Source: a virus | Lineage: Duplodnaviria > Caudoviricetes | IMG/VR virus record: IMGVR_UViG_3300036803_000075 | Location: 43,725 to 107,724 of that record | Direction: 5' to 3' (one strand) | Length of the DNA: 64,000 nucleotides | Shown here: positions 1,922 through 49,513 of the stretch, in pieces | How positions within the stretch are numbered: position 1 is the stretch's first letter | How the letters are laid out: every line of letters starts with the position of its first letter | Position numbers and translations under genes: made by a program | The notes under the pieces: model-generated | Database searches by the model: none | What the model was told of the DNA's origin: nothing | What the model saw: the letters and a program-made list of their open reading frames with translations, nothing else

Positions 1922-3280
1922 ATGGCCGACGTGAGCCACTCTTACGATCAAACTCCGGTAGCCGAGATCGAGCAGGTTACCCGCATGTTCCACAAGGGTG
2001 CGACCATTCGCGTCTTCGTCATAGGCGGAAAGTACTGGTACGCGGCCGTCGACATCGGCAAGGTGCTAGGCATCGGGCGTAACGGGCCAGAAGTCCGAAG
2101 GTACCTGGAGACCGGCTTCATGACCGTCAACCTGACCGGGTTCGCCGAGGCCAACCCGGGTCTGGTGGACCTGGCCCAGACCAAAAACGGTCTGCTGGTC
2201 CTGGTGAACGACCCAGCGGTCGACACCCTCACCCGCTACGGCATGCAAATGGGCCGGTGTGTGGAGAAAGAGGGCTGGTACATGATGGCGAAAGAGGAGC
2301 CTCAACAGCAGGTCATCCAGACCGCAGCCAAGCCGTTGTCGCAGACGCCGGTCACCGAACTCATCGAGCAGGAGGAGACCACAGAAGAGATCCTCAAAGC
2401 TTTCGAACAAGCAGAGAAGGTACACGTGACCATCAGGCCAAAACCGAGACCGCCAAGGAAGGACACCCGCATGCCCAACAGCCCCATCAGCATCCGTCCG
2501 GAGAGGATTAGCCCGGACCAGGCCCGTCGATACCTGGCGGCCAACACCAGCAACCGCAACATCCGCCGTGAGCTGGTCAAGGTTTATGCCCGCGATATGG
2601 CCGAAGGCCGTTGGAAGGACAACGGCGAGACGATCAAGTTCTCCAAGGACGGCGTCCTGATAGACGGCCAGCACCGGCTGGAGGCCGTCGTCCAGGCCAA
2701 CGTGACCATCTCCATGGTGGTGGTGCGAGGGCTCAACGCCGACGTACAGGCCACCATCGACGCCGGAGCCAAGCGGACCGCAGGCGACGCTCTCAAGCTG
2801 CGCGGTGAGATGTACGGGCGCACCCTCGCTGCCGTCGCCCGACGCTGCCTGATCTGGGAGGCCAGCGACCGCAAGGACATGGACCCGTCCCATCGGTCGG
2901 TTTCCCACCAGGAGGTCATCGATTACGTGGCCGCCCACCCCGACCTGCAGAACGCCACCGACTTCGCCCAGCACATCACCGGAAGCCGGCCGGCTCCGTT
3001 GTCGGTCATGGGCTTCAGCTACTGGGCGCTCGCACAGATCTCCCAGGATGATGCCGACCTGTTCTTCGAGGGCCTGACCACAGGCGTTAACCTGACGCCG
3101 GGCAATCCCGTACTGGCGCTGCGGAATCGGCTGCTGGATGTCCGCTACCGCAGGTACTCAGCTCAGGATGACCGAGAGAAGGTCGCGCTGATCTTCAAGG
3201 GCTGGAACTTCTTCCGGGCCGGTCGCCCTGTCCAGATCCTGAAGTTCATGAAGTCCGAGTCCTTCCCCATCCCGAAGTAA
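1922..3280 (+). CDS. Bro-N-like domain plus DGQHR/ParB-like domain protein
   Basis: N-terminal IRVFVIGGKYWYAAVDIGKVLG resembles Bro-N. NRNIR...LIDGQHRLEAV is the DGQHR motif. A possible internal start lies at 2471 after AAGGAAGGA. Confidence 0.6.
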   Translation: MADVSHSYDQTPVAEIEQVTRMFHKGATIRVFVIGGKYWYAAVDIGKVLGIGRNGPEVRRYLETGFMTVNLTGFAEANPGLVDLAQTKNGLLVLVNDPAVDTLTRYGMQMGRCVEKEGWYMMAKEEPQQQVIQTAAKPLSQTPVTELIEQEETTEEILKAFEQAEKVHVTIRPKPRPPRKDTRMPNSPISIRPERISPDQARRYLAANTSNRNIRRELVKVYARDMAEGRWKDNGETIKFSKDGVLIDGQHRLEAVVQANVTISMVVVRGLNADVQATIDAGAKRTAGDALKLRGEMYGRTLAAVARRCLIWEASDRKDMDPSHRSVSHQEVIDYVAAHPDLQNATDFAQHITGSRPAPLSVMGFSYWALAQISQDDADLFFEGLTTGVNLTPGNPVLALRNRLLDVRYRRYSAQDDREKVALIFKGWNFFRAGRPVQILKFMKSESFPIPK

Positions 3281-3326
3281 GCCCCCTCTACCCACCGTCC
3301 CTTTTCTGCCAGGAAGGCAAACCCTC

Positions 3327-3962
3327 ATGCAGATCACTCGTAAGAAGGTGGCCATCGCGGTCACTGCGGCCGTCATTGCCGCCATCGGAATCCTGGCCGG
3401 CTGTACCAGCCTGCCGTCAGCCCAGCAGGCCGCCGTCAACCGGTCCCAGACCCGGGCGAACTACGTCCCCAAGAACGACGTGGAGGGGCGCAACTACAAC
3501 GCCCGCCAGCGTCTGGCCGACGACCCCACCGCGATCGTCTGGTGCTCGGTCTACCCGAACAACCAGACGGTCAAGCCCTACACCGTCCCGATCGCCGGCA
3601 AGCTCACCTCGGGCAACAAGCGGCCCTACCCGACGAGCCAGTTCAGCAATGGGACCAACGACAACACCAATAGCCCCGAGCTGCCCGGCACCGACGGCTT
3701 CTACGGCAGCTCCAGTGACTACTCCTACGGCTTCGACCCGGCCGGTGTTTACTGGGAGTTCCACAACGCCGATTTCACCTGTACGTCCTCGCCGACCTTG
3801 ATCCAGAAGAACAGCACCACCTTCTCGGTCACCACCGCACCGGACCAGCTCACGTCAGCGGACCTCCGCGCCGAGGCGGCCCTCAAGGCCTGCCGGGCGA
3901 CCAACCCGGACCCGTCCGCTCCGTGCCCGGCCGCCGCACAGATTCTGGGGATCAAGCCGTGA
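3327..3962 (+). CDS. Putative lipoprotein
   Basis: Basic N-terminus, hydrophobic stretch and LAGC lipobox; AGGAAGG RBS. Confidence 0.75.
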   Translation: MQITRKKVAIAVTAAVIAAIGILAGCTSLPSAQQAAVNRSQTRANYVPKNDVEGRNYNARQRLADDPTAIVWCSVYPNNQTVKPYTVPIAGKLTSGNKRPYPTSQFSNGTNDNTNSPELPGTDGFYGSSSDYSYGFDPAGVYWEFHNADFTCTSSPTLIQKNSTTFSVTTAPDQLTSADLRAEAALKACRATNPDPSAPCPAAAQILGIKP

Positions 3963-4375
3963 GTACTGCCAAAGCGATCTTCACCGCGATTGTCAGTCTG
4001 CTGGGCATAGCACTCATCCTGGTCGTGTTCGGTTTCTTCGCCGGCTGGTTCCGGGCTGGAGTCGAGGTCATCAGCCCTGAGAACGTCAAGGCTCAGTACC
4101 AGTTCGGCTACAGCTACGACCGTGGCATGGTCGCGCTGGCCGGCACCTGGTGTTCGGCGAAGCAGGCTGAAACGACCGAGACGAACCCCGATTACAAGGC
4201 CCAGCGGGCCAGCCAGACACTGGCGTACGGCAATCAGTACAGGTCCGTCGAGGCTCAGTACGACGCGGCGATGGCCAACGCCTTCCAGGCAAAGCACGTC
4301 AAGCCCGCAGATCTGCCGCTGGTCGCTCCGACGTTGCCCGAGAGGGTGGCGAGCTTGGGGCTGACCTGCGGATAG
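3959..4375 (+). CDS. Membrane-anchored hypothetical protein
   Basis: GTGA overlap with the upstream stop; N-terminal TM segment AIFTAIVSLLGIALILVVFGFFAGWF. Confidence 0.7.
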   Translation: MSTAKAIFTAIVSLLGIALILVVFGFFAGWFRAGVEVISPENVKAQYQFGYSYDRGMVALAGTWCSAKQAETTETNPDYKAQRASQTLAYGNQYRSVEAQYDAAMANAFQAKHVKPADLPLVAPTLPERVASLGLTCG

Positions 4376-4382
4376 TAAGACC

Positions 4383-4456
4383 GGGACGGTAGCTCAGTCG
4401 GTTAGAGCGGCGCTCTGATAAGGCGCAGGCCGGAGGTTCGATTCCTCCTCGTCCCA
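4383..4456 (+). tRNA. tRNA-Ile(GAT), CCA not encoded
   Basis: Full cloverleaf: acceptor GGGACGG/TCGTCCC, D arm GCTC/GAGC, anticodon stem GCGCT/GGCGC with loop CTGATAA (GAT at 4417-4419), T arm GGAGG-TTCGATT-CCTCC, discriminator A4456. Confidence 0.92.
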
Positions 4457-4954
4457 CGGCTACTCAGGTAGCTCGTGGCGCGGTTGGGCATGGCACGGCC
4501 AGGCGAGGCACGGCCTGGTTTGGCGCGGCGGGGCATGGCTTGGGATTTACCAGGACGACCGGCAGTCTCTGGGGTTCGAGACCTCAGCGTCCACGCCCAC
4601 TTTGGTGGGTCATGGTGCGGTCGGGCGTGGCATGGCGTGGCACGGCGTGATGCGGCAAGGCTTGGGATCTACGGGGTGACTGGCAGCCATCAGGGTTCGA
4701 GGCCCTGACATCCACGCTCGCTTTGGGCGGGTCAGGGCATGGCCGGACGCGGTTCGGCACGGTGGGGTGCGGCATGGCGTGGTGCGGCATGGCTAGGCCT
4801 GGCGTGGGATCTACAGCGGCAGTGGCACACGTCCTGGTTCGAGTCCAGGAGCCGCACGCACGGCTCGGCTGGGTCAGGTGTGGCAGGGCGACGTGTGGCA
4901 TGGCTGGGAATATACAGCGGCAGATGCGTCCTGGTTCGAATCCGGGAGTCTGCA
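4457..4954 (+). ncRNA. Array A: four GGY-NN pentamer tracts separated by mini tRNA-like elements (putative guide RNA array)
   Basis: Tracts at 4477-4541 (13 pentamers), 4614-4663 (10), 4736-4805 (14) and 4862-4906 (9). Mini-tRNA elements at 4553-4593, 4674-4714, 4816-4856 and 4920-4954. The structure is seen directly; RNA function is inferred. Confidence 0.8.
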
Positions 4955-4973
4955 CGCACTACGAAGCTGAGTA

Positions 4974-4990
4974 GGTTGGCTAAGCCAACC
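4974..4990 (+). terminator. Hairpin after array A (possible terminator or 3' stabiliser)
   Basis: Perfect inverted repeat GGTTGGC-TAA-GCCAACC; no U-tract. Confidence 0.35.
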
Positions 4991-5084
4991 CCTATCAGCC
5001 TAACCACTACTTGACGCAGAGTCGAAAAGGTGATTCCATTCCTCTCGTCATAACCGCCAGAGATCAGGGAGAGGAACCCCAAAA

Positions 5085-5690
5085 GTGGCGATCAACGATA
5101 TGAAGCTAAAACTGACCGGGACGACCCCGGTGCTGTTTCACAACAGCCAGCTCGTCAACCCGTTCAACCCGATCAACCGGGAGAAGAAGAAGCTCACGGA
5201 CAAGCGCACCAAGCAGACCGACGAGGACCGCATCCAGGTCGCTCGGCTGGAATGGACAGGCGGCTGGTACTGGAACGACGAGCACGGACCCATCCTGCCG
5301 ATGATCAACGTCTACGCGGCGCTGCTGAAGGCGGCCAAGAGCACGCGCAACGGTCCTCTGGTCGACAAGGGCGTCAACTTCTTGCGCCTGACCGAGCCCC
5401 TGCAGTACGACGGCCCCCGTGACCTGGACGGCCTGTGGGGCAACGGCATCGGCGAGGGTGGCGACCACCCCTCTCCGTACGTCGATTACCAGGCCGTCGG
5501 CCAGCAGGCGGTCAAGATCATGCGCTGCCGGCCGAAGCTGAGCGAGTGGGAGCTTGACACCGTCTTCGGAGTGGACGACACGGTCATCGATCCCGAGGCG
5601 TTCCTCGGATTCATGGCCTACGCTGGCAAGTACATCGGTGTTGGGGACTTCCGTGCTATGTACGGTAAGTTCAGCGTCAAGGAGGTCTGA
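5085..5690 (+). CDS. Small RAMP/Cas7-like RNA-binding protein, putative effector of the GGY-NN arrays
   Basis: Beta1 MKLKLTGTTPVLFHN; GPILPMINVYAALLKAA in the position of the RAMP PxIPGSSxKGxxR motif; C-terminal G-rich loop GKYIGVGDFRAMYGKFSV; lies between the two arrays; RBS AGGGAGAGGA. Confidence 0.65.
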   Translation: MAINDMKLKLTGTTPVLFHNSQLVNPFNPINREKKKLTDKRTKQTDEDRIQVARLEWTGGWYWNDEHGPILPMINVYAALLKAAKSTRNGPLVDKGVNFLRLTEPLQYDGPRDLDGLWGNGIGEGGDHPSPYVDYQAVGQQAVKIMRCRPKLSEWELDTVFGVDDTVIDPEAFLGFMAYAGKYIGVGDFRAMYGKFSVKEV

Positions 5691-5691
5691 G

Positions 5692-6246
5692 TTGACTGCT
5701 ATCTTCGACTCCGAAAACCCGCAGTGGCGGCCGATCTACGACGGTCTTAAGAAGGCCGGTCTCGAATTCGATCGTCTTTTCAGCTGGGACACACTGAAAG
5801 CCATCGCAGGATACGACATCCGGCTGAATCGCAGTGCCTTCTACGCGGCAGTAAAGCAGCTGGAAGAGCACGACAAGCGTACGTTGGTCAGTGTGTGGGG
5901 CAAGGGATATCGCGTGGCTCCAGCGCCCGAGCATCATAAGCTCGGGCTCAAGCACCAGCTCAAGGCCAAGCGTGCCGTACGGCGCGGCGCGCGCAAGGTC
6001 AAGGCGGCTGACACGTCTCATCTCACTGCCGAGCAGATCCACGCCAACGAGCAGCTGATCTTCCGACTCCATCGTCACGAAACTCAGCTGATCAACCACG
6101 AGACCCGGATCAGCGCACTGGAGAGGGAGACTGGGAAAACTCGCCGTGAGCTGGACGAGTTGAACAAGCAGTCTGAGCTGGCACGCCGGCTCAAGGCGCT
6201 GGGTATCAATGTCCCCAAGAGTGCCCCTGACACCGTCGAGGGGTAA
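5692..6246 (+). CDS. Array-associated accessory protein (winged-helix-like N-terminus, basic helix, coiled-coil C-terminus)
   Basis: TTG start at 5692 behind an AAGGAGG RBS inside the upstream gene's end. RTLVSVWGKGYRVA resembles a wHTH wing. Heptad-rich LINHETRISALERETGKTRRELDELNK. Confidence 0.65.
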   Translation: MTAIFDSENPQWRPIYDGLKKAGLEFDRLFSWDTLKAIAGYDIRLNRSAFYAAVKQLEEHDKRTLVSVWGKGYRVAPAPEHHKLGLKHQLKAKRAVRRGARKVKAADTSHLTAEQIHANEQLIFRLHRHETQLINHETRISALERETGKTRRELDELNKQSELARRLKALGINVPKSAPDTVEG

Positions 6247-7746
6247 CAGGGCCTGGCCTGGCCGGGTGAGGCGGGACGAGGCTAGGTGAGGCGAGGTTCG
6301 GCAACGTCGGGCCGGGTAGGGCGAGACTGGGCGCGGCGAGGTCAGGCTGGGTTGGACAAGGAAGCACAAAATGGGTGACTGGCAGTCTCCGAGGTTCGAG
6401 GCCTCGGCACCCACGCTCCTTTCGGGAGTCAAGACGGGGCAGGGCGCGGTGAGGTGTGGCCTGGTGGGGTGAGGCTTGGCGTGGTGAGGCTTGGGATTTT
6501 AAAATGGACGACCGGCAGCCACTAGGGTTCAAGGCCCTAGCGTTCACGCTCACTACGGTGAGTTGAGGCCCGGTTTGGTACGGCAAGGCGTGACAGGGCA
6601 TGGCTCGGCCCGGCGAGGTCCGGCGCGGCAGGGCGCGGCATGATTGGGCGCCGTATGCCATGGCAAGGTGAGGCATGGCAAGGAATTACAGAGCGAGCGG
6701 CACACTTCCGGGTTCGAGTCCTGGACGCTCGCGGCCGTCCTCGGGCGGCTCGTGGCAAGCCTAGGTTGGGTTTGGCATGGCAATGTTAGGTAGGGCTCGG
6801 CTTGGTCCGGTGCGGCAAAGCGCGGTTAGGTTTGGCATGGCAACAAACTGGGTGAGCGGCACACTCTTCGGTCCGAGTCCGAAGCACCCACGGCTACTCC
6901 GGTAGCTCGTGGCTTGGTGCGGCGCGGCAGCGCATGGTTGGGCCTGGCATGGCAGGGAATTTACTGAGCGGATGGTCGTACGGGAGGTTCGACTCCTCTT
7001 GCGTTCACGCCCTCTTTGGGGGTCAGGGCACGGCTAGGCTGGGCGCGGTAGGGCTGGGTACGATTCGGTCTGGCGGGGCAAGGCTTGGGATATACCAGTG
7101 CGAATGGCATACCTCTCGGTTCGAGTCTGAGACGCTCACGCTCTCTTCGAGAGTCAGGGCAGGGCGACGCCAGGCATGGTTAAGTTGGGTGCGGCTGGAC
7201 GCGGTGCGGCAAGGTTTGACTTGACGTGGCAAGGCGAGGCAGAGCTGGGTCAGGCAGGGCAGCAACAACACTGTGTCGACGGTCTTCGAGAGGGTTCGAC
7301 TCCCTCTGACACGCGCTCTCTTCGAGAGTCAGGGCGGGGCTAGGCAGGGCAACGTATGGCCCGGCGCGGTAAGGCTTGGCTAGGTTGGGTTGGGTCCGGT
7401 GGAGTGTGGCTAGGTATGGAGTGCCGACGGTCTGCGAGGAGGTTCGACTCCTTCTGGCACACGCTCTCTTCGGAGAGGCGGGGCTAGGTGCGGCGTGGCT
7501 TGGTGGGGCACGGTGCGGTCAGGCCGGGCATGACAAGGATCAAAAATCTGGACGAGCAGCACACTTCTGGGTGCGAGTCCCAGACGCCCACGCTCACTCC
7601 AGTGAGTACGTGGCCAGGCGTGGCATGGTAGGGCACGGTCCGGCTGGGTCGGGCGCGGTAGGGCTAGGCACTGGGCATGGTTTGGTACGCCTAGGTGAGA
7701 TGTGGCATGGCTTGGTATGGCAGGGATCTGTTAAAATCCCTGCCAT
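6247..7746 (+). ncRNA. Array B: ten GGY-NN pentamer tracts separated by nine mini tRNA-like elements
   Basis: Tracts: 6250-6359 (22), 6433-6492 (12), 6567-6681 (23), 6754-6843 (18), 6911-6955 (9), 7027-7086 (12), 7158-7262 (21), 7333-7417 (17), 7477-7536 (12), 7612-7723 (22). Mini-tRNAs: 6373-6413, 6506-6546, 6691-6731, 6850-6890, 6966-7007, 7098-7138, 7273-7313, 7421-7461, 7550-7590. Ends in an 11-bp hairpin at 7717-7746. Confidence 0.8.
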
Positions 7747-8095
7747 GAGCACCTGAAGAGATCGAAAGCCAGCGCTGTCCGTCACCAAGGACGATTGTGA
7801 ATGGCAGTATTTTCGAGCCGGCGGCCCTGGCGGTCAGCATCAAAACAAGACCTCGTCCGGGGCTCGGGTGATCCACCATCCGTCCGGCGCCCGTGGCGAG
7901 TCCCGGGAGGAGCGCAGTCAGCTCCAAAACCGTAAGGCTGCCTGGCGCCGGATGGTGGCCGATCCGAAGTTCAAGATCTGGATCAACACCCAGCTTTATG
8001 GTCTCGAGCTGGCGGAATCCAAGGTCGCCAGGGACATGGCGGAGAAGAACATCCGGGTCGAAGTCAAGAAAGACGGGAAATGGATATGCCAGTAG
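7745..8095 (+). CDS. GGQ peptide-chain-release-factor-like (RF-1 domain/ArfB-like) protein with an in-frame TGA at codon 4
   Basis: The frame reads MST*RDRKPALSVTKDDCEWQYFRAGGPGGQHQNKTSSGARVIHHPSG...ERSQLQNRKAA. GGQ is at 7829-7837. The ORF track (7868 start) misses the GGQ. Confidence 0.75.
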
Positions 8096-8283
8096 AAGTG
8101 CAAGGCTGCCGAACCGAAGACGACCCCGAGGGGATGTTGCACTTCAAGGATGGCAATGACCCCAACTTGTATGCGTACTGTGGCGTTCGGGTCCAAATCA
8201 TGACCAGCAATTGGCTTCTAGCCAATTGCTGTCCTATTTGCGAGGCGAAACGTCTTACGGTCTATAAGGAGCAGAAGATCTAG
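8086..8283 (+). CDS. Small Cys-rich hypothetical protein
   Basis: Overlaps the upstream stop; H...YCG...CPIC pattern. Confidence 0.5.
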   Translation: MPVEVQGCRTEDDPEGMLHFKDGNDPNLYAYCGVRVQIMTSNWLLANCCPICEAKRLTVYKEQKI

Positions 8284-8636
8284 TCTCCGTTCTCCCGCTC
8301 CTTGCGCTGTTCCAGCTCCTGGTCGCTCTCGTCCTCGGCCGTCATCAGGTCGTCGCCGTCGTCCACACCCAGTCGGCGGAGGATCTCGTCGAGCTTGAGA
8401 TTGAGAGCGAGATTGTCCCGGTTCTGGGTGTTCTGAATGATGAACACCATCAAAAAAGTGATGATCGTCGTGCTGGTGTTGATCACCAACTGCCAGGTGT
8501 CTGAGAAGCCCAACAGCGGCCCGCTGGCGCCCCATACGAGCAGAGCGCCCAGCGCGGCCACAAACACCCAGCCCCGGCCGAGAATGGCCGAGATCTTGCT
8601 GGTGAACCTGGTGAAGACCCCACCCTTTTTACTCAT
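8280..8636 (-). CDS. Low-affinity iron permease family (Fet4-like domain) membrane protein
   Basis: Characteristic WGASGPLLGFSDTWQLVINTSTTIITFLMVFIIQNTQNRD..ALNLKLDEI; ATG at 8636 overlaps the upstream TGA. Confidence 0.8.
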   Translation of the reverse strand: MSKKGGVFTRFTSKISAILGRGWVFVAALGALLVWGASGPLLGFSDTWQLVINTSTTIITFLMVFIIQNTQNRDNLALNLKLDEILRRLGVDDGDDLMTAEDESDQELEQRKERENGD

Positions 8637-10711
8637 GCTGTCGGAGTCACCCAAGTAGTTCCATTCCACACCTTAACGGGCGCCTGTACCCATGAGGTTC
8701 CATTCCAAATCTTTACTGGCGCATGCACCCAAGTAGTTCCATTCCACACCTTCATCGCGCCGCCGGAGGGGGCCGTGTACGTCTTCGTCAGCGTGATGTG
8801 GCTGGCACCCGAGGAGTCATAGCCGGTGCCCGTGACGGTGATCTGCTGGCCATTATCGACAACATCGAACCAGCCATATTGCTGGCTGTAGACCGAGCTG
8901 CTCTGGGGCACCGGGTAGATCCCAGCGGAGTACGTACCGTTGCCGGCATAGGTTGTCTGGTCCAGCGGTGAGGCACAGAAGATCTGCAGACCGCTCGGGG
9001 AGTGGGTCCCGTCATCCGCCGCCAGCACATGCAGGTCACCATGGATCATCATCACCCGGACACCGTTGGCGTTGATGAAGTTGCCGATCTCCGTACGCTC
9101 GGTGTTGTAAGCCGACCAGGTGTCGTCGCCGACGTACGTGGTGCCGTTGTTCCACGCGTCCTCATGGAACCAGATCTTGACCGGCTCGGGCTGCAGCAGC
9201 TGAGCCTTCAGCCAGTCCTTCTGGGTGCTCCCGAGCTTGGTCTTGCTGGAGTTGTCCGTCTGGGCGATCGGACTCATGTACGACCGGCCGTCGGTGCAGA
9301 TATAGCGCACCCGGCCGGCCACGAAGGTGAAGTACGTTCCCGCGTTGTCCGCCGCCGGCAGCGTATAGCTCGGCACCCGGTTCCGGTAGACGGACTGGGC
9401 AGCCGCGTGGGCGACCGCAGTACCGTCGTTGTTCGAGCCGCCGCCGGAGTCGTGGTCAGACCAGATGTAACTGATGCTGGTGCTGGAGAAGAGCGACTGC
9501 TGCCGCTGGCAGCTCATCACCTCGTCCCACGCCCGGTTGAACAACGTCGTGTCATTGGCCACGATGTCTCGGTAGTTCAGGTCTCCCAGGTGCTGGAAGA
9601 ACAACGCCGTCCGAGATCCCGCCCCCACCGAGCCGGTGCGTGTGCGGATCTGGTCGAAGTTGATGTCATTACTGAAGGTCTTGGCACATGAGGCAGCAGC
9701 GAAGGAATAGCTAGCGGGGCTGCCTGCTACCGGGAACGTCCGCACCGTACCGACAGACTGGGTGTCGATCGTTCCGTCCAGCTCCAGACCGTAGTAGTAC
9801 GTGGTGTTCGCAGTCAGCCCTGAAATAGCGAACTTAGCCAATCCATTGGCGTCAGGCGTGGCCGCGCTGGAAAAGACTGGGCTCGTCAGCAGATCGCTAG
9901 TGGTAGAGACCTTCACCCTCGCGGACGCCGTGTTAACCGTTCGAGAGGAGACATTGAATCCAGTAGCGGTCGCTCCACCGGCCCAACGGGAAAGGCAGGT
10001 CTGGTACATCGCTGGGTATCCGACATCGGAAAATCCCGCATTCGCTGCGTAATAAGCGATAGCGGCAGTGGCGTTAACCGTCCCTACCACGCCGCAGTAC
10101 ATAGCCGTGCCGGTGTTGAATGTAGCCGTGCTGGTGATGGTCTGGGCAGGTGAGCCAAAGGCTGCAGTCGGGAAGGATCGAACCTCCAGCTGCCCGACCG
10201 TGGCAGAGAAAGTCACCTTCCATTCAATGCGACCCCAGGTATTCGCCGTCAAGGCACCCGTGGTGGTCGTGGCGGCAGACGCTCCTGTCGAATCCCGAGC
10301 TGAGATCAGACCACTAGAAAGCACTCGCAGAGTAGCCATGATAGCGCCCGAAGTATTCAAGATCGCCATGACGGCTTGGGAGCTGCCTGGAAGCGAGGGA
10401 AAGTTAACGTCGATCCAGCCATAAATGGTGGTCGCGCTCGTCTGGAACATCCCCGCTGGACTAGCGGCGCCAGTGTTCCACCGGGTATACGCCTGGGCGT
10501 CGGTGGCATTCGCTACTACGTGAAGGGTATTGACTCCGGTCGACCGTACGACCGTATTGCTGTAGGCCAATGCTGCCGTACCACCGATCGTGGGCAAGAA
10601 GTCAAAGGCCCATCCAGGCCCACCACCAGAGTTGCCGGCAGTGGTAGGCATGTTAGGCACCACCAGCGCCGCACCATTGGGGCCATTCAGGCTATTGAAA
10701 ACTCGCGTCAT
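8633..10711 (-). CDS. PhoD-like metallophosphoesterase fused to virion-type domains
   Basis: Motifs AASCA, HLGDLNY, WSDHD, TDGRSY, LGSTQKDWL and IHGDLH; FN3-like segment GLTANTTYYY; C-terminal triple KxWNGxxW repeat. Confidence 0.75.
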   Translation of the reverse strand: MTRVFNSLNGPNGAALVVPNMPTTAGNSGGGPGWAFDFLPTIGGTAALAYSNTVVRSTGVNTLHVVANATDAQAYTRWNTGAASPAGMFQTSATTIYGWIDVNFPSLPGSSQAVMAILNTSGAIMATLRVLSSGLISARDSTGASAATTTTGALTANTWGRIEWKVTFSATVGQLEVRSFPTAAFGSPAQTITSTATFNTGTAMYCGVVGTVNATAAIAYYAANAGFSDVGYPAMYQTCLSRWAGGATATGFNVSSRTVNTASARVKVSTTSDLLTSPVFSSAATPDANGLAKFAISGLTANTTYYYGLELDGTIDTQSVGTVRTFPVAGSPASYSFAAASCAKTFSNDINFDQIRTRTGSVGAGSRTALFFQHLGDLNYRDIVANDTTLFNRAWDEVMSCQRQQSLFSSTSISYIWSDHDSGGGSNNDGTAVAHAAAQSVYRNRVPSYTLPAADNAGTYFTFVAGRVRYICTDGRSYMSPIAQTDNSSKTKLGSTQKDWLKAQLLQPEPVKIWFHEDAWNNGTTYVGDDTWSAYNTERTEIGNFINANGVRVMMIHGDLHVLAADDGTHSPSGLQIFCASPLDQTTYAGNGTYSAGIYPVPQSSSVYSQQYGWFDVVDNGQQITVTGTGYDSSGASHITLTKTYTAPSGGAMKVWNGTTWVHAPVKIWNGTSWVQAPVKVWNGTTWVTPTA

Positions 10712-43603: not shown

Positions 43604-44113
43604 TTAGCGCCGTTCCCAGCGCCATACGGTCTTGCCCTCGGCGTCGCGCCCTTCCTGACGAGTGAAGTCAGGCGCCTGGTAGGCGTGCAGGTCGCATAGC
43701 GGGGGTTCCACCTCGGAGCGCTCTTCACGCATCATCAAGGTAGATCCACATGCTTTGCCGCCCTGTTGAGCGACACATTCCAGGGTGATCAGCTCGGACT
43801 TGGGCGTGTGGGCGATCGTCTTTTCAATCGCCTCGGTGGCCTTGTCCTGCTGATCGAACCAGGCCGTAGTCTGGCGGTCCATCGCCTCGTCGACGGTGGC
43901 CTCATCGCCCACAACCGCCACGATGCGGCGCTTAAGGGCCTGCTGGAACTCCGGCGTACCGGCGGCATCCTCAGAGATGAACTTGATGTCATTACCCTTG
44001 GGGTCGCCTGCGGCTTCCCAGAAGATGTAATTCTTCACGTTGTTGGGATCCAACGACATGACCGTTGGGCCCTTCATGAGGTTGCGAACCGCGATACGCT
44101 GCGCCACCGGCAT
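43604..44113 (-). CDS. Hypothetical late protein with Cys/His motif
   Basis: AGGAG RBS; preceded by the late promoter motif. Confidence 0.65.
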   Translation of the reverse strand: MPVAQRIAVRNLMKGPTVMSLDPNNVKNYIFWEAAGDPKGNDIKFISEDAAGTPEFQQALKRRIVAVVGDEATVDEAMDRQTTAWFDQQDKATEAIEKTIAHTPKSELITLECVAQQGGKACGSTLMMREERSEVEPPLCDLHAYQAPDFTRQEGRDAEGKTVWRWERR

Positions 44114-49448: not shown

Positions 49449-49513
49449 CGCACGGCGTGGTTGGGCCAGGTGTGGCGCGGCTGGGTGCGGCGGGGCACGG
49501 CACGGCTAGGTAA
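49449..49513 (+). ncRNA. Orphan GGY-NN tract (12 pentamers)
   Basis: CGCAC then GGCGT GGTTG GGCCA GGTGT GGCGC GGCTG GGTGC GGCGG GGCAC GGCAC GGCTA GGTAA; intergenic; same strand and grammar as arrays A and B. Confidence 0.7.

Follow-up and report, generated by a model that had tools for sequence, protein, structure and literature searches.

The VIPR locus and its parts

The window, i.e. the whole stretch of DNA analysed here, comprises 64,000 nucleotides (nt; positions 43,725 to 107,724) of a 107.7-kb IMG/VR virus record (IMGVR_UViG_3300036803_000075; Duplodnaviria, Caudoviricetes) whose proteins resemble those of actinobacterial phages; coordinates refer to the window unless stated otherwise. 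At 4383-7747 a phage VIPR system has its guide-RNA locus, composed of the vipr gene, a vap-like accessory gene and 14 units of guide RNA (vrRNA), four of which lie 5' of vipr and ten 3' of the vap-like gene. Every internal boundary between two guide tracts, or between a tract and the vipr messenger, bears either a genuine tRNA or one of 13 miniature tRNA-like elements (mini-tRNAs hereafter). VIPR itself is already known; the window provides a large example of it, with 13 mini-tRNAs and a true tRNA in one locus. The parts are as follows (bits in the mini-tRNA lines are scores against R1, a covariance model described further below).

4383-4456 (+): genuine tRNA-Ile with anticodon GAT that opens the array (ARAGORN; Rfam tRNA, 71 bits)
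4457-4552 (+): guide unit 1; 5' hairpin at about 4457-4475, 14-pentamer GGY-NN tract 4477-4546, A/U-rich linker
4553-4593 (+): mini-tRNA m01, 41 nt (52.8 bits)
4594-4673 (+): unit 2; hairpin 4595-4610, 13-pentamer tract 4604-4668, linker
4674-4714 (+): mini-tRNA m02, 41 nt (53.3 bits)
4715-4815 (+): unit 3; hairpin 4716-4732, 17-pentamer tract 4726-4810, linker
4816-4856 (+): mini-tRNA m03, 41 nt (53.6 bits)
4857-4916 (+): unit 4; 11-pentamer tract 4857-4911, linker
4917-4954 (+): mini-tRNA m04, a degenerate 38-nt copy with a shortened linker, between unit 4 and the vipr messenger (16.2 bits; direct reading)
5085-5690 (+): vipr, RAMP-superfamily RNA-binding protein of 201 amino acids; open reading frame (ORF) from GTG 5085, likely start ATG 5100
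5692-6246 (+): vap-like accessory gene, 184 amino acids (phrog_5926; weak similarity to LittleE gp33)
6247-6372 (+): unit 5; 23-pentamer tract 6250-6364 directly after the vap stop codon, with neither a 5' tRNA-like element nor a hairpin
6373-6413 (+): mini-tRNA m05, 41 nt (55.8 bits)
6414-6505 (+): unit 6; hairpin 6415-6429, 14-pentamer tract 6428-6497, linker
6506-6546 (+): mini-tRNA m06, 41 nt (48.6 bits)
6547-6690 (+): unit 7; hairpin 6548-6563, 26 in-phase pentamers 6557-6686, linker
6691-6731 (+): mini-tRNA m07, 41 nt, discriminator G (56.0 bits)
6732-6849 (+): unit 8; hairpin 6732-6752, 18-pentamer tract 6754-6843, linker
6850-6890 (+): mini-tRNA m08, 41 nt (56.1 bits)
6891-6965 (+): unit 9; hairpin 6891-6909, 10-pentamer tract 6911-6960, linker
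6966-7007 (+): mini-tRNA m09, 42 nt, with a 7-bp T stem (17.1 bits; pairing by direct reading)
7008-7097 (+): unit 10; hairpin 7009-7023, 14-pentamer tract 7022-7091, linker
7098-7138 (+): mini-tRNA m10, 41 nt, one acceptor mismatch (51.0 bits)
7139-7272 (+): unit 11; hairpin 7140-7154, 22-pentamer tract 7153-7262, linker
7273-7313 (+): mini-tRNA m11, 41 nt, discriminator G (44.8 bits)
7314-7420 (+): unit 12; hairpin at about 7314-7336, 19-pentamer tract from 7328, short linker
7421-7461 (+): mini-tRNA m12, 41 nt (43.6 bits)
7462-7549 (+): unit 13; hairpin 7462-7480, 14-pentamer tract 7472-7541, linker
7550-7590 (+): mini-tRNA m13, 41 nt, one acceptor mismatch (51.0 bits)
7591-7747 (+): unit 14, the last; hairpin 7592-7607, two 12-pentamer tracts 7612-7671 and 7674-7733; its 3' end is a 12-bp hairpin at about 7716-7747, with no mini-tRNA

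The locus is assigned to VIPR because the vipr product matches the Vipr protein of Escherichia phage SUSP1, because GGY-NN tracts surround its gene and because the two together agree with the published description. The family profile of the 201-residue protein matches PDB entry 36pp_D ('SUSP1 Vipr protein') over its full length (residues 1-193, E 9.1e-45), and its AlphaFold2 (AF2) model (pLDDT 92.9) finds Csm3 of type III, the type VII Cas7 and Cmr4 as best PDB matches in Foldseek, i.e. the RAMP fold; among the PHROGs it matches only a family of unknown function, phrog_4652. The vap-like ORF, directly 3' of vipr, matches phrog_5926 and bears only weak similarity to gp33 of Mycobacterium phage LittleE, which in turn resembles wV8 gp94, the product of the gene that follows vipr there. 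Runs of six phased GGY-NN units yield 54 matches in the window, all on the + strand, where none is expected, and they make up 14 units of 10-26 in-phase pentamers each that flank vipr on both sides. A Vipr among GGY-NN tracts is what the founding work leads one to expect: Vipr is a RAMP protein that oligomerises on a vrRNA built of GGY/NN repeats, the NN dinucleotides of which read double-stranded DNA with a one-base skip, and VIPR loci consist of vipr and an accessory gene with no other cas genes (bioRxiv 10.64898/2026.04.26.720920; for the cryo-electron microscopy (cryo-EM) of Vipr, see bioRxiv 10.64898/2026.04.26.720927). No Cas family turned up when the ten neighbouring ORFs were compared with Pfam and PHROGs, and repeat analysis finds pentamer tracts and mini-tRNA/hairpin modules only, not a CRISPR array. 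An earlier interpretation made from the letters alone (the sequence-only reading hereafter) had taken the tracts between the elements for guides, which is borne out by the Vipr match, the fold and the published description; its remark that the elements replace Cas6 is too loose, given that published VIPR loci lack other cas genes and that the separators found there are hammerhead ribozymes.

The association of tracts and Vipr is not peculiar to this phage. When IMG/VR was scanned for nine phased GGY-NN units, at least 120 stretches were recovered, and by the profile of the 201-residue protein 85 of the 120 tract-selected loci listed carry a Vipr homologue, which with few exceptions shares the strand of the tracts and lies no more than a few hundred bases from them; these 85 loci span 39% to 70% G+C. 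Four other readings of the tracts, namely a sponge for a ring-shaped RNA-binding protein, two-tier G-quadruplexes, RNase E decoys and a replication origin, were given up, since Vipr accompanies the tracts and the mechanism published for VIPR suffices to explain them. As for what the guides recognise, the exact one-nucleotide-skip patterns of three decoded guides match nothing in IMG/VR, and a mismatch-tolerant scan of 4.6 Mb of sequence performed no better than shuffled guides; in both cases the targets may lie outside the sequences searched.

Two peculiarities of the tracts themselves deserve mention. Those at 6250-6364, 6557-6686 and 7153-7262 keep a single phase for 22-26 pentamers that include several imperfect units, and each may comprise two guides with no separator between them. 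A lone 13-pentamer GGY-NN tract lies at 49449-49513 (+), some 42 kb from the VIPR locus; it has no mini-tRNA, is followed by a strong terminator-like hairpin that extends to about 49563 (-36 kcal/mol), and resembles the 'solo vrRNAs' of bioRxiv 10.64898/2026.10.15.759431.

Anatomy of the mini-tRNA

All 13 elements that the sequence-only reading had placed between 4553 and 7590 are present, on the + strand, and its two worked examples (4553 and 7273) are exact, as are its main statements on their build. Eleven copies measure 41 nt, the exceptions being those at 4917-4954 (38 nt) and 6966-7007 (42 nt). In the 41-nt copies an acceptor stem of 5 bp is followed by a linker of 11 nt, a T stem of 6 bp that closes a 7-nt T loop, a 5-nt 3' acceptor strand and the discriminator base. 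The T loop is of the TTCGA type in 10 of the 13 copies, a GG is kept in the linker of 11, the discriminator is A in 11 and G in two, and CG follows it in all 13, just as it follows the tRNA-Ile; like the mini-tRNAs, this genuine tRNA encodes no CCA and has a hairpin and a tract downstream of its CG. That the elements have no anticodon arm, as had been proposed, is concluded from the fact that ARAGORN and Rfam call the tRNA-Ile at 4383-4456 only. At E values up to 1, Rfam returns nothing beyond this true tRNA and chance-level matches, one mini-tRNA scoring a weak 26 bits against tRNA-Sec (cut-off 47). What kind of RNA is it, then? The cloverleaf of the Rfam tRNA family (RF00005) is missing, an 11-nt linker standing in place of the D and anticodon arms, and what is present is a T-arm that shows the T-loop consensus of tRNAs and stacks on an acceptor stem, the hallmark of the t-elements discussed below. 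The mini-tRNAs are thus true acceptor/T-arm mimics.

The claim that pairing persists while the sequence changes also holds, with a computed score far above that of shuffled controls. In a small alignment (n=13; 11 window copies and two from other phages), 98.6% of pair cells show standard pairing, eight of the 11 pairs have changed on both sides, and the covariation score reaches 0.857, versus 0.229 +/- 0.043 once columns are shuffled and 0.10-0.16 for partner columns shifted against each other. A larger alignment (A4) of 103 distinct copies from 20 sources, fitted to the covariance model, has 99.7% of its cells paired, double (compensatory) changes at nine of the 11 pairs, and 273 double-change cells as opposed to 64 +/- 6 in shuffles. 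Window mini-tRNA/hairpin modules are 61-87% identical to one another, and their acceptor sequences are free to vary, which leaves no particular tRNA identity conserved. Some positions do not vary at all: the G-C pair that closes the T stem, the purine discriminator and a C at +1 are found in 103 of 103 copies, an encoded CCA in none of the 103; base -1 is A in 78. The invariant C at +1 suggests either a 3' cut one base past the discriminator or mimicry of position 74.

Covariance model R1 was built on the alignment of 13. It scores the 11 regular copies at 44-56 bits and gives only weak matches to the two odd ones, and across the 107.7-kb record nothing else alike is found, the sole further weak match being a 17-nt T-stem fragment.

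Occurrence outside the window

Are these elements a property of VIPR? The first similarity search returned single-copy matches in Mycobacterium phage Send513 and the Caliburn group of Streptomyces phages. With R1, Send513 has 11 copies and Caliburn 10, all on the gene strand, and gaps between genes hold each of the 10 Caliburn copies as well as seven of those in Send513 (in the annotated stretch examined). In Caliburn they occupy ten gaps of the leftward operon gp54-gp72, 9-40 nt past a stop codon and 13-71 nt ahead of the next start; its whole genome contains no match to Vipr even at E 10, and no tracts. A pattern of 28 fixed bases that describes one subfamily matches at least 119 stretches of IMG/VR, which span 0.43 to 0.71 in G+C; of the 119 listed, two carry a vipr gene and 117 do not. 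The mini-tRNA is therefore a portable phage cassette that is also set between ordinary genes and is not specific to VIPR. Phage phiC31, for which there is work on early transcripts, contains no copy. A search of the literature and Rfam found no published description or model of such a phage family, and the paper on cluster J phages does not mention the elements of LittleE.

Seen from the other side, a generic minihelix scan found an element next to the tracts in five of the 121 tract-bearing loci listed, and none in reversed sequence; R1 has matches in three of the first 80 such loci (L007, L008 and L039). Punctuation of guide arrays by mini-tRNAs, as proposed by the sequence-only reading, thus stands for the window and fails as a general trait of VIPR: with five loci among the 121 listed, a tRNA-like separator is a minority design among VIPR arrays. 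In LittleE, L039, L222 and L007 the element likewise lies at tract/tract and tract/messenger junctions. LittleE (NC_042322), a cultured phage that infects Mycobacterium smegmatis, has a VIPR locus with four mini-tRNAs. It starts with a promoter-like site, followed by tract, mini-tRNA, tract, mini-tRNA, vipr (gp34) and vap (gp33), and continues after vap with tract, mini-tRNA, tract, mini-tRNA, tract, hairpin and terminator, a layout that matches that of the window. Four of its five guides have a small 3' hairpin between the tract and the mini-tRNA. In L039 the order is coding sequence, mini-tRNA, tract, mini-tRNA, tract, mini-tRNA, vipr; downstream of vap in L222 come five tracts, and every one of these, even the final one, has a mini-tRNA behind it.

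Gene 35 in the LittleE annotation (4563-4952, opposite strand) is fully overlapped by two vrRNA tracts and two mini-tRNAs and is probably a mis-annotated ORF.

Other VIPR arrays are organised differently. Escherichia phage wV8 (EU877232) encodes a Vipr 97.9% identical to that of SUSP1, and its tracts end in the element published as a pseudoknot tail. The repeat annotated there in 2008 as 'DR_4' (2768-2825 and 4161-4218) matches the end of a vrRNA tract together with its conserved 3' tail, a type of tail that is now described as a pseudoknot in the SUSP1 clade (bioRxiv 10.64898/2026.04.26.720920). In positions 3200-5300 of another IMG/VR contig (L120, 39% G+C), most tracts are preceded by an A/T-rich stretch, several of these contain a near-consensus sigma-70 promoter, and most tracts end in GGG-rich pentamers and a U-run; judging by these signals, guides of this phage appear to be transcribed individually. 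Published arrays further include overlapping ones and, in types I and V, ones interspersed with hammerheads (bioRxiv 10.64898/2026.04.26.720920).

How might the guides be released?

Could the linkers of the window array serve as promoters of single units? This idea was dropped, because a promoter consensus scan of the linkers yields a single site (6476-6505), the number expected by chance. The explanation that we favour, with a probability of roughly 60%, is that host RNase P and RNase Z excise the mini-tRNAs and thereby separate the guides, every cleavage step being one that we infer. Guide units would be transcribed as long precursors that are split by the portable 41-nt mimic of the acceptor/T-arm 'elbow', which the host's tRNA-maturation enzymes would take for a tRNA. 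The cut at the purine discriminator, or one base past it, would be made by RNase Z or a comparable 3' activity and would liberate the next unit with its 5' end immediately closed by a tight hairpin; RNase P would act at the 5' side, behind a single-stranded A/U-rich leader, and thereby define the 3' end of the preceding guide. A free 41-nt mini-tRNA would be the by-product, and the tRNA-Ile that heads the array would be set free likewise.

This view is favoured because of the elbow features, the lack of CCA, the downstream hairpin, the A/U-rich leaders, the tRNA-Ile in the same slot, the use of the family in gene operons of phages that have no VIPR, and the precedent of t-elements. The stacked acceptor/T helix together with the elbow, in which the T loop meets the GG of the linker, is what tRNA-processing enzymes recognise, and a 5'-terminal hairpin is a classic protection of a processed 5' end. 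In 14 of 14 units a hairpin, often with a UNCG-type loop, starts directly at the predicted RNase Z site or one base further on, and across the family one starts within 5 nt in 90 of 103 copies, versus 43% of random 30-mers from the same loci. Ten of the 14 tracts end in a GGGA- or GGA-type motif followed by an A/U-rich linker of 8-15 nt and then the mini-tRNA; these linkers are unpaired, as expected for an RNase P leader. The genuine tRNA-Ile fills the same slot as the mini-tRNAs, in the same downstream context, and needs both trimming and extension for use; a phage-encoded CCA-adding enzyme was looked for and none was found.

The proposal of RNase P and RNase Z that the sequence-only reading had put forward hence survives in part: the anatomy fits (a tRNA-Ile in the slot, no CCA, a hairpin at the RNase Z site, A/U-rich leaders), whereas the 5' cut is less well supported, so that from the sequence the 3' cut would appear the firmer of the two. 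Several observations weigh against excision on both sides. The coaxial stack has 11 bp, as opposed to 12 bp in tRNA, and a pair between base -1 and the discriminator is present in just six of 13 copies, which makes the RNase P cut site uncertain. Such a cut would moreover leave the window guides with an unstructured A/U-rich 3' tail, whereas the characterised SUSP1 guide keeps a structured 3' cap (bioRxiv 10.64898/2026.04.26.720920,.720927). Finally, in the window, LittleE and L222 alike, no separator stands between the stop codon of vap and the tract that comes next, and in L222 the last tract also carries a mini-tRNA; both would be expected, too, if the element were part of the 3' end of each guide.

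It is this last thought that leads to the most serious competitor, in which the mini-tRNA is the retained 3' tail, or cap, of each vrRNA, RNase Z alone cuts, and RNase P is inactive there or blocked by bound Vipr. The element does lie 3' of the tract in 13 of 14 cases in the window, five of five in L222 and four of five in LittleE; a cap would spare the vap/tract junction of all three loci any separator and would provide the window guides with the structured end that they otherwise lack. It would also agree with published vrRNAs, which have an invariable structured 3' tail, the protomers adjacent to it being the best resolved in the cryo-EM classes (bioRxiv 10.64898/2026.04.26.720920,.720927). 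However, members of the same family with equal model scores lie between protein-coding genes of phages that have no Vipr, the last tracts of the window and of LittleE have no mini-tRNA, and a true tRNA-Ile, usable only if cut on both sides, occupies the same slot. In LittleE, four of the five guides already possess a small 3' hairpin upstream of the element, and since this hairpin precedes it in most guides, the mini-tRNA there lies outside the guide proper. With nothing in the sequence hinting at protection from RNase P, we regard a retained cap as unlikely, albeit well ahead of the proposals that follow.

Considerably less probable is a purely structural role, in which the elements would block exonucleases, pause or end transcription, or insulate neighbouring guides against misfolding, with their likeness to tRNA a mere relic of origin. 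They are indeed compact and G+C-rich, and a second hairpin follows most of them, but what has been conserved is the elbow and 3' end of a tRNA (T loop, linker GG, purine discriminator, C at +1, no CCA) and not a generic hairpin; besides, a U-run is missing, the terminator scan is empty at the mini-tRNA sites, and a real tRNA is interchangeable with the mini-tRNAs. The idea that the elements are themselves the products, acceptor-arm decoys that soak up host proteins active on tRNA 3' ends or elbows (e.g. defence toxins) and whose place in the array is incidental, draws on their many copies per genome and strongly conserved acceptor/T-arm identity, and is very improbable in view of their strictly junctional placement, one per boundary, in gene operons and guide arrays alike, and of freely varying acceptor sequences that preserve no specific tRNA identity.

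A variant of the excision model in which the released mini-tRNAs, about 13 per transcript and perhaps CCA-extended, double as effectors that titrate host proteins acting on the tRNA 3' end or elbow strikes us as a long shot. If it were true, abortive-infection toxins that modify the acceptor end, for example, could be titrated, and the phage would be protected wherever the cassette punctuates an operon.

Neighbouring genes

Right after the array, at 7716-8095 (+), lies a gene for a protein with an RF-1 (GGQ) domain (Pfam PF00472, E 3.7e-16) that has no obvious in-frame start; an ATG in the last hairpin of the array meets a TGA at codon 4. A gene for a PhoD-like phosphatase/phosphodiesterase (8633-10711, -) also adjoins the VIPR locus. 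Outside the window, three further tRNA genes lie on the opposite strand (G000:C1:36391-39909, -), beside a tRNA match of 149 nt that stays below threshold (24 bits) and may represent an interrupted tRNA.

Comparison with known systems

The closest relatives of the locus are the published VIPR systems (SUSP1 of type II; hammerhead arrays of types I and V), with which it shares Vipr and a vap-like gene flanked by same-strand GGY-NN guides. As in the hammerhead arrays, a structured RNA lies between neighbouring guides; unlike the published separators, which are self-cleaving ribozymes or a pseudoknot tail, that of the window is a 41-nt tRNA mimic and would, if processed, depend on host enzymes. 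Neither a hammerhead nor any other ribozyme family has an Rfam match in window positions 3000-10000 at E up to 1. Two further differences concern the guides: several window tracts run to 17-26 in-phase pentamers, compared with 9-16 repeats in the published vrRNAs (bioRxiv 10.64898/2026.04.26.720920), and window units open with a 5' hairpin, unit 5 being listed without one. In the running text of three VIPR preprints the word 'tRNA' does not occur, and in that of a fourth neither 'tRNA-like' nor 'minihelix' does.

The mini-tRNAs of Caliburn, Send513 and the IMG/VR stretches share the architecture (36-61 bits with R1), the gene-strand orientation and, for the most part, the hairpin that follows. 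Those in operons sit between a stop codon and the next ribosome-binding site, whereas all 13 of the window lie in the guide array and none between protein genes. A functional precedent for such punctuation comes from the t-elements of plant mitochondria, for which RNase Z and RNase P cuts have been mapped experimentally (Forner et al. 2007, PMC1920247). Common to both are the absence of decoding, the T-arm motif, the position at transcript boundaries and the interchangeability of real tRNAs and mimics (PMC1920247). The t-elements, however, belong to an organelle and delimit separate messengers, whereas the mini-tRNA is a phage element of 41 nt with neither D nor anticodon arm that separates guides by cleavages that we infer. 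The tRNA-like domains of tmRNA and of the bacterial Y RNA YrlA (PMC4201824) likewise combine an acceptor-like stem and a T-arm in the absence of a decoding anticodon arm. Compared with these, the mini-tRNA is far smaller, is repeated in arrays and has neither a Ro-binding stem nor a messenger-like domain. The tmRNA and Y RNA families have no Rfam match to the mini-tRNAs at E up to 1.

Two further systems release small RNAs in the manner proposed here. In engineered polycistronic tRNA-guide RNA arrays, used for multiplex CRISPR, full tRNAs are placed between the guides, and RNase P and RNase Z release the latter in eukaryotic or artificial settings. In murine gammaherpesvirus 68, tRNA-linked microRNA precursors (TMERs) are transcribed by polymerase III and released by the same two enzymes. 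Bacterial phages and VIPR guides play no part in either. VIPR dates only from 2026, and for multi-guide precursors its preprints describe hammerheads as separators, units that overlap and pseudoknot tails. The present findings link an RNA-guided system with a widespread, uncatalogued family of phage RNAs that apparently punctuates operons much as tRNAs punctuate mitochondrial transcripts, and direct testing is feasible, since LittleE is cultured and its host is M. smegmatis. If excision by RNase P and RNase Z is indeed how the guides are freed, the phage would hand their maturation over to the universal tRNA enzymes of its host, the very trick that genome engineers invented for multiplex CRISPR guides.

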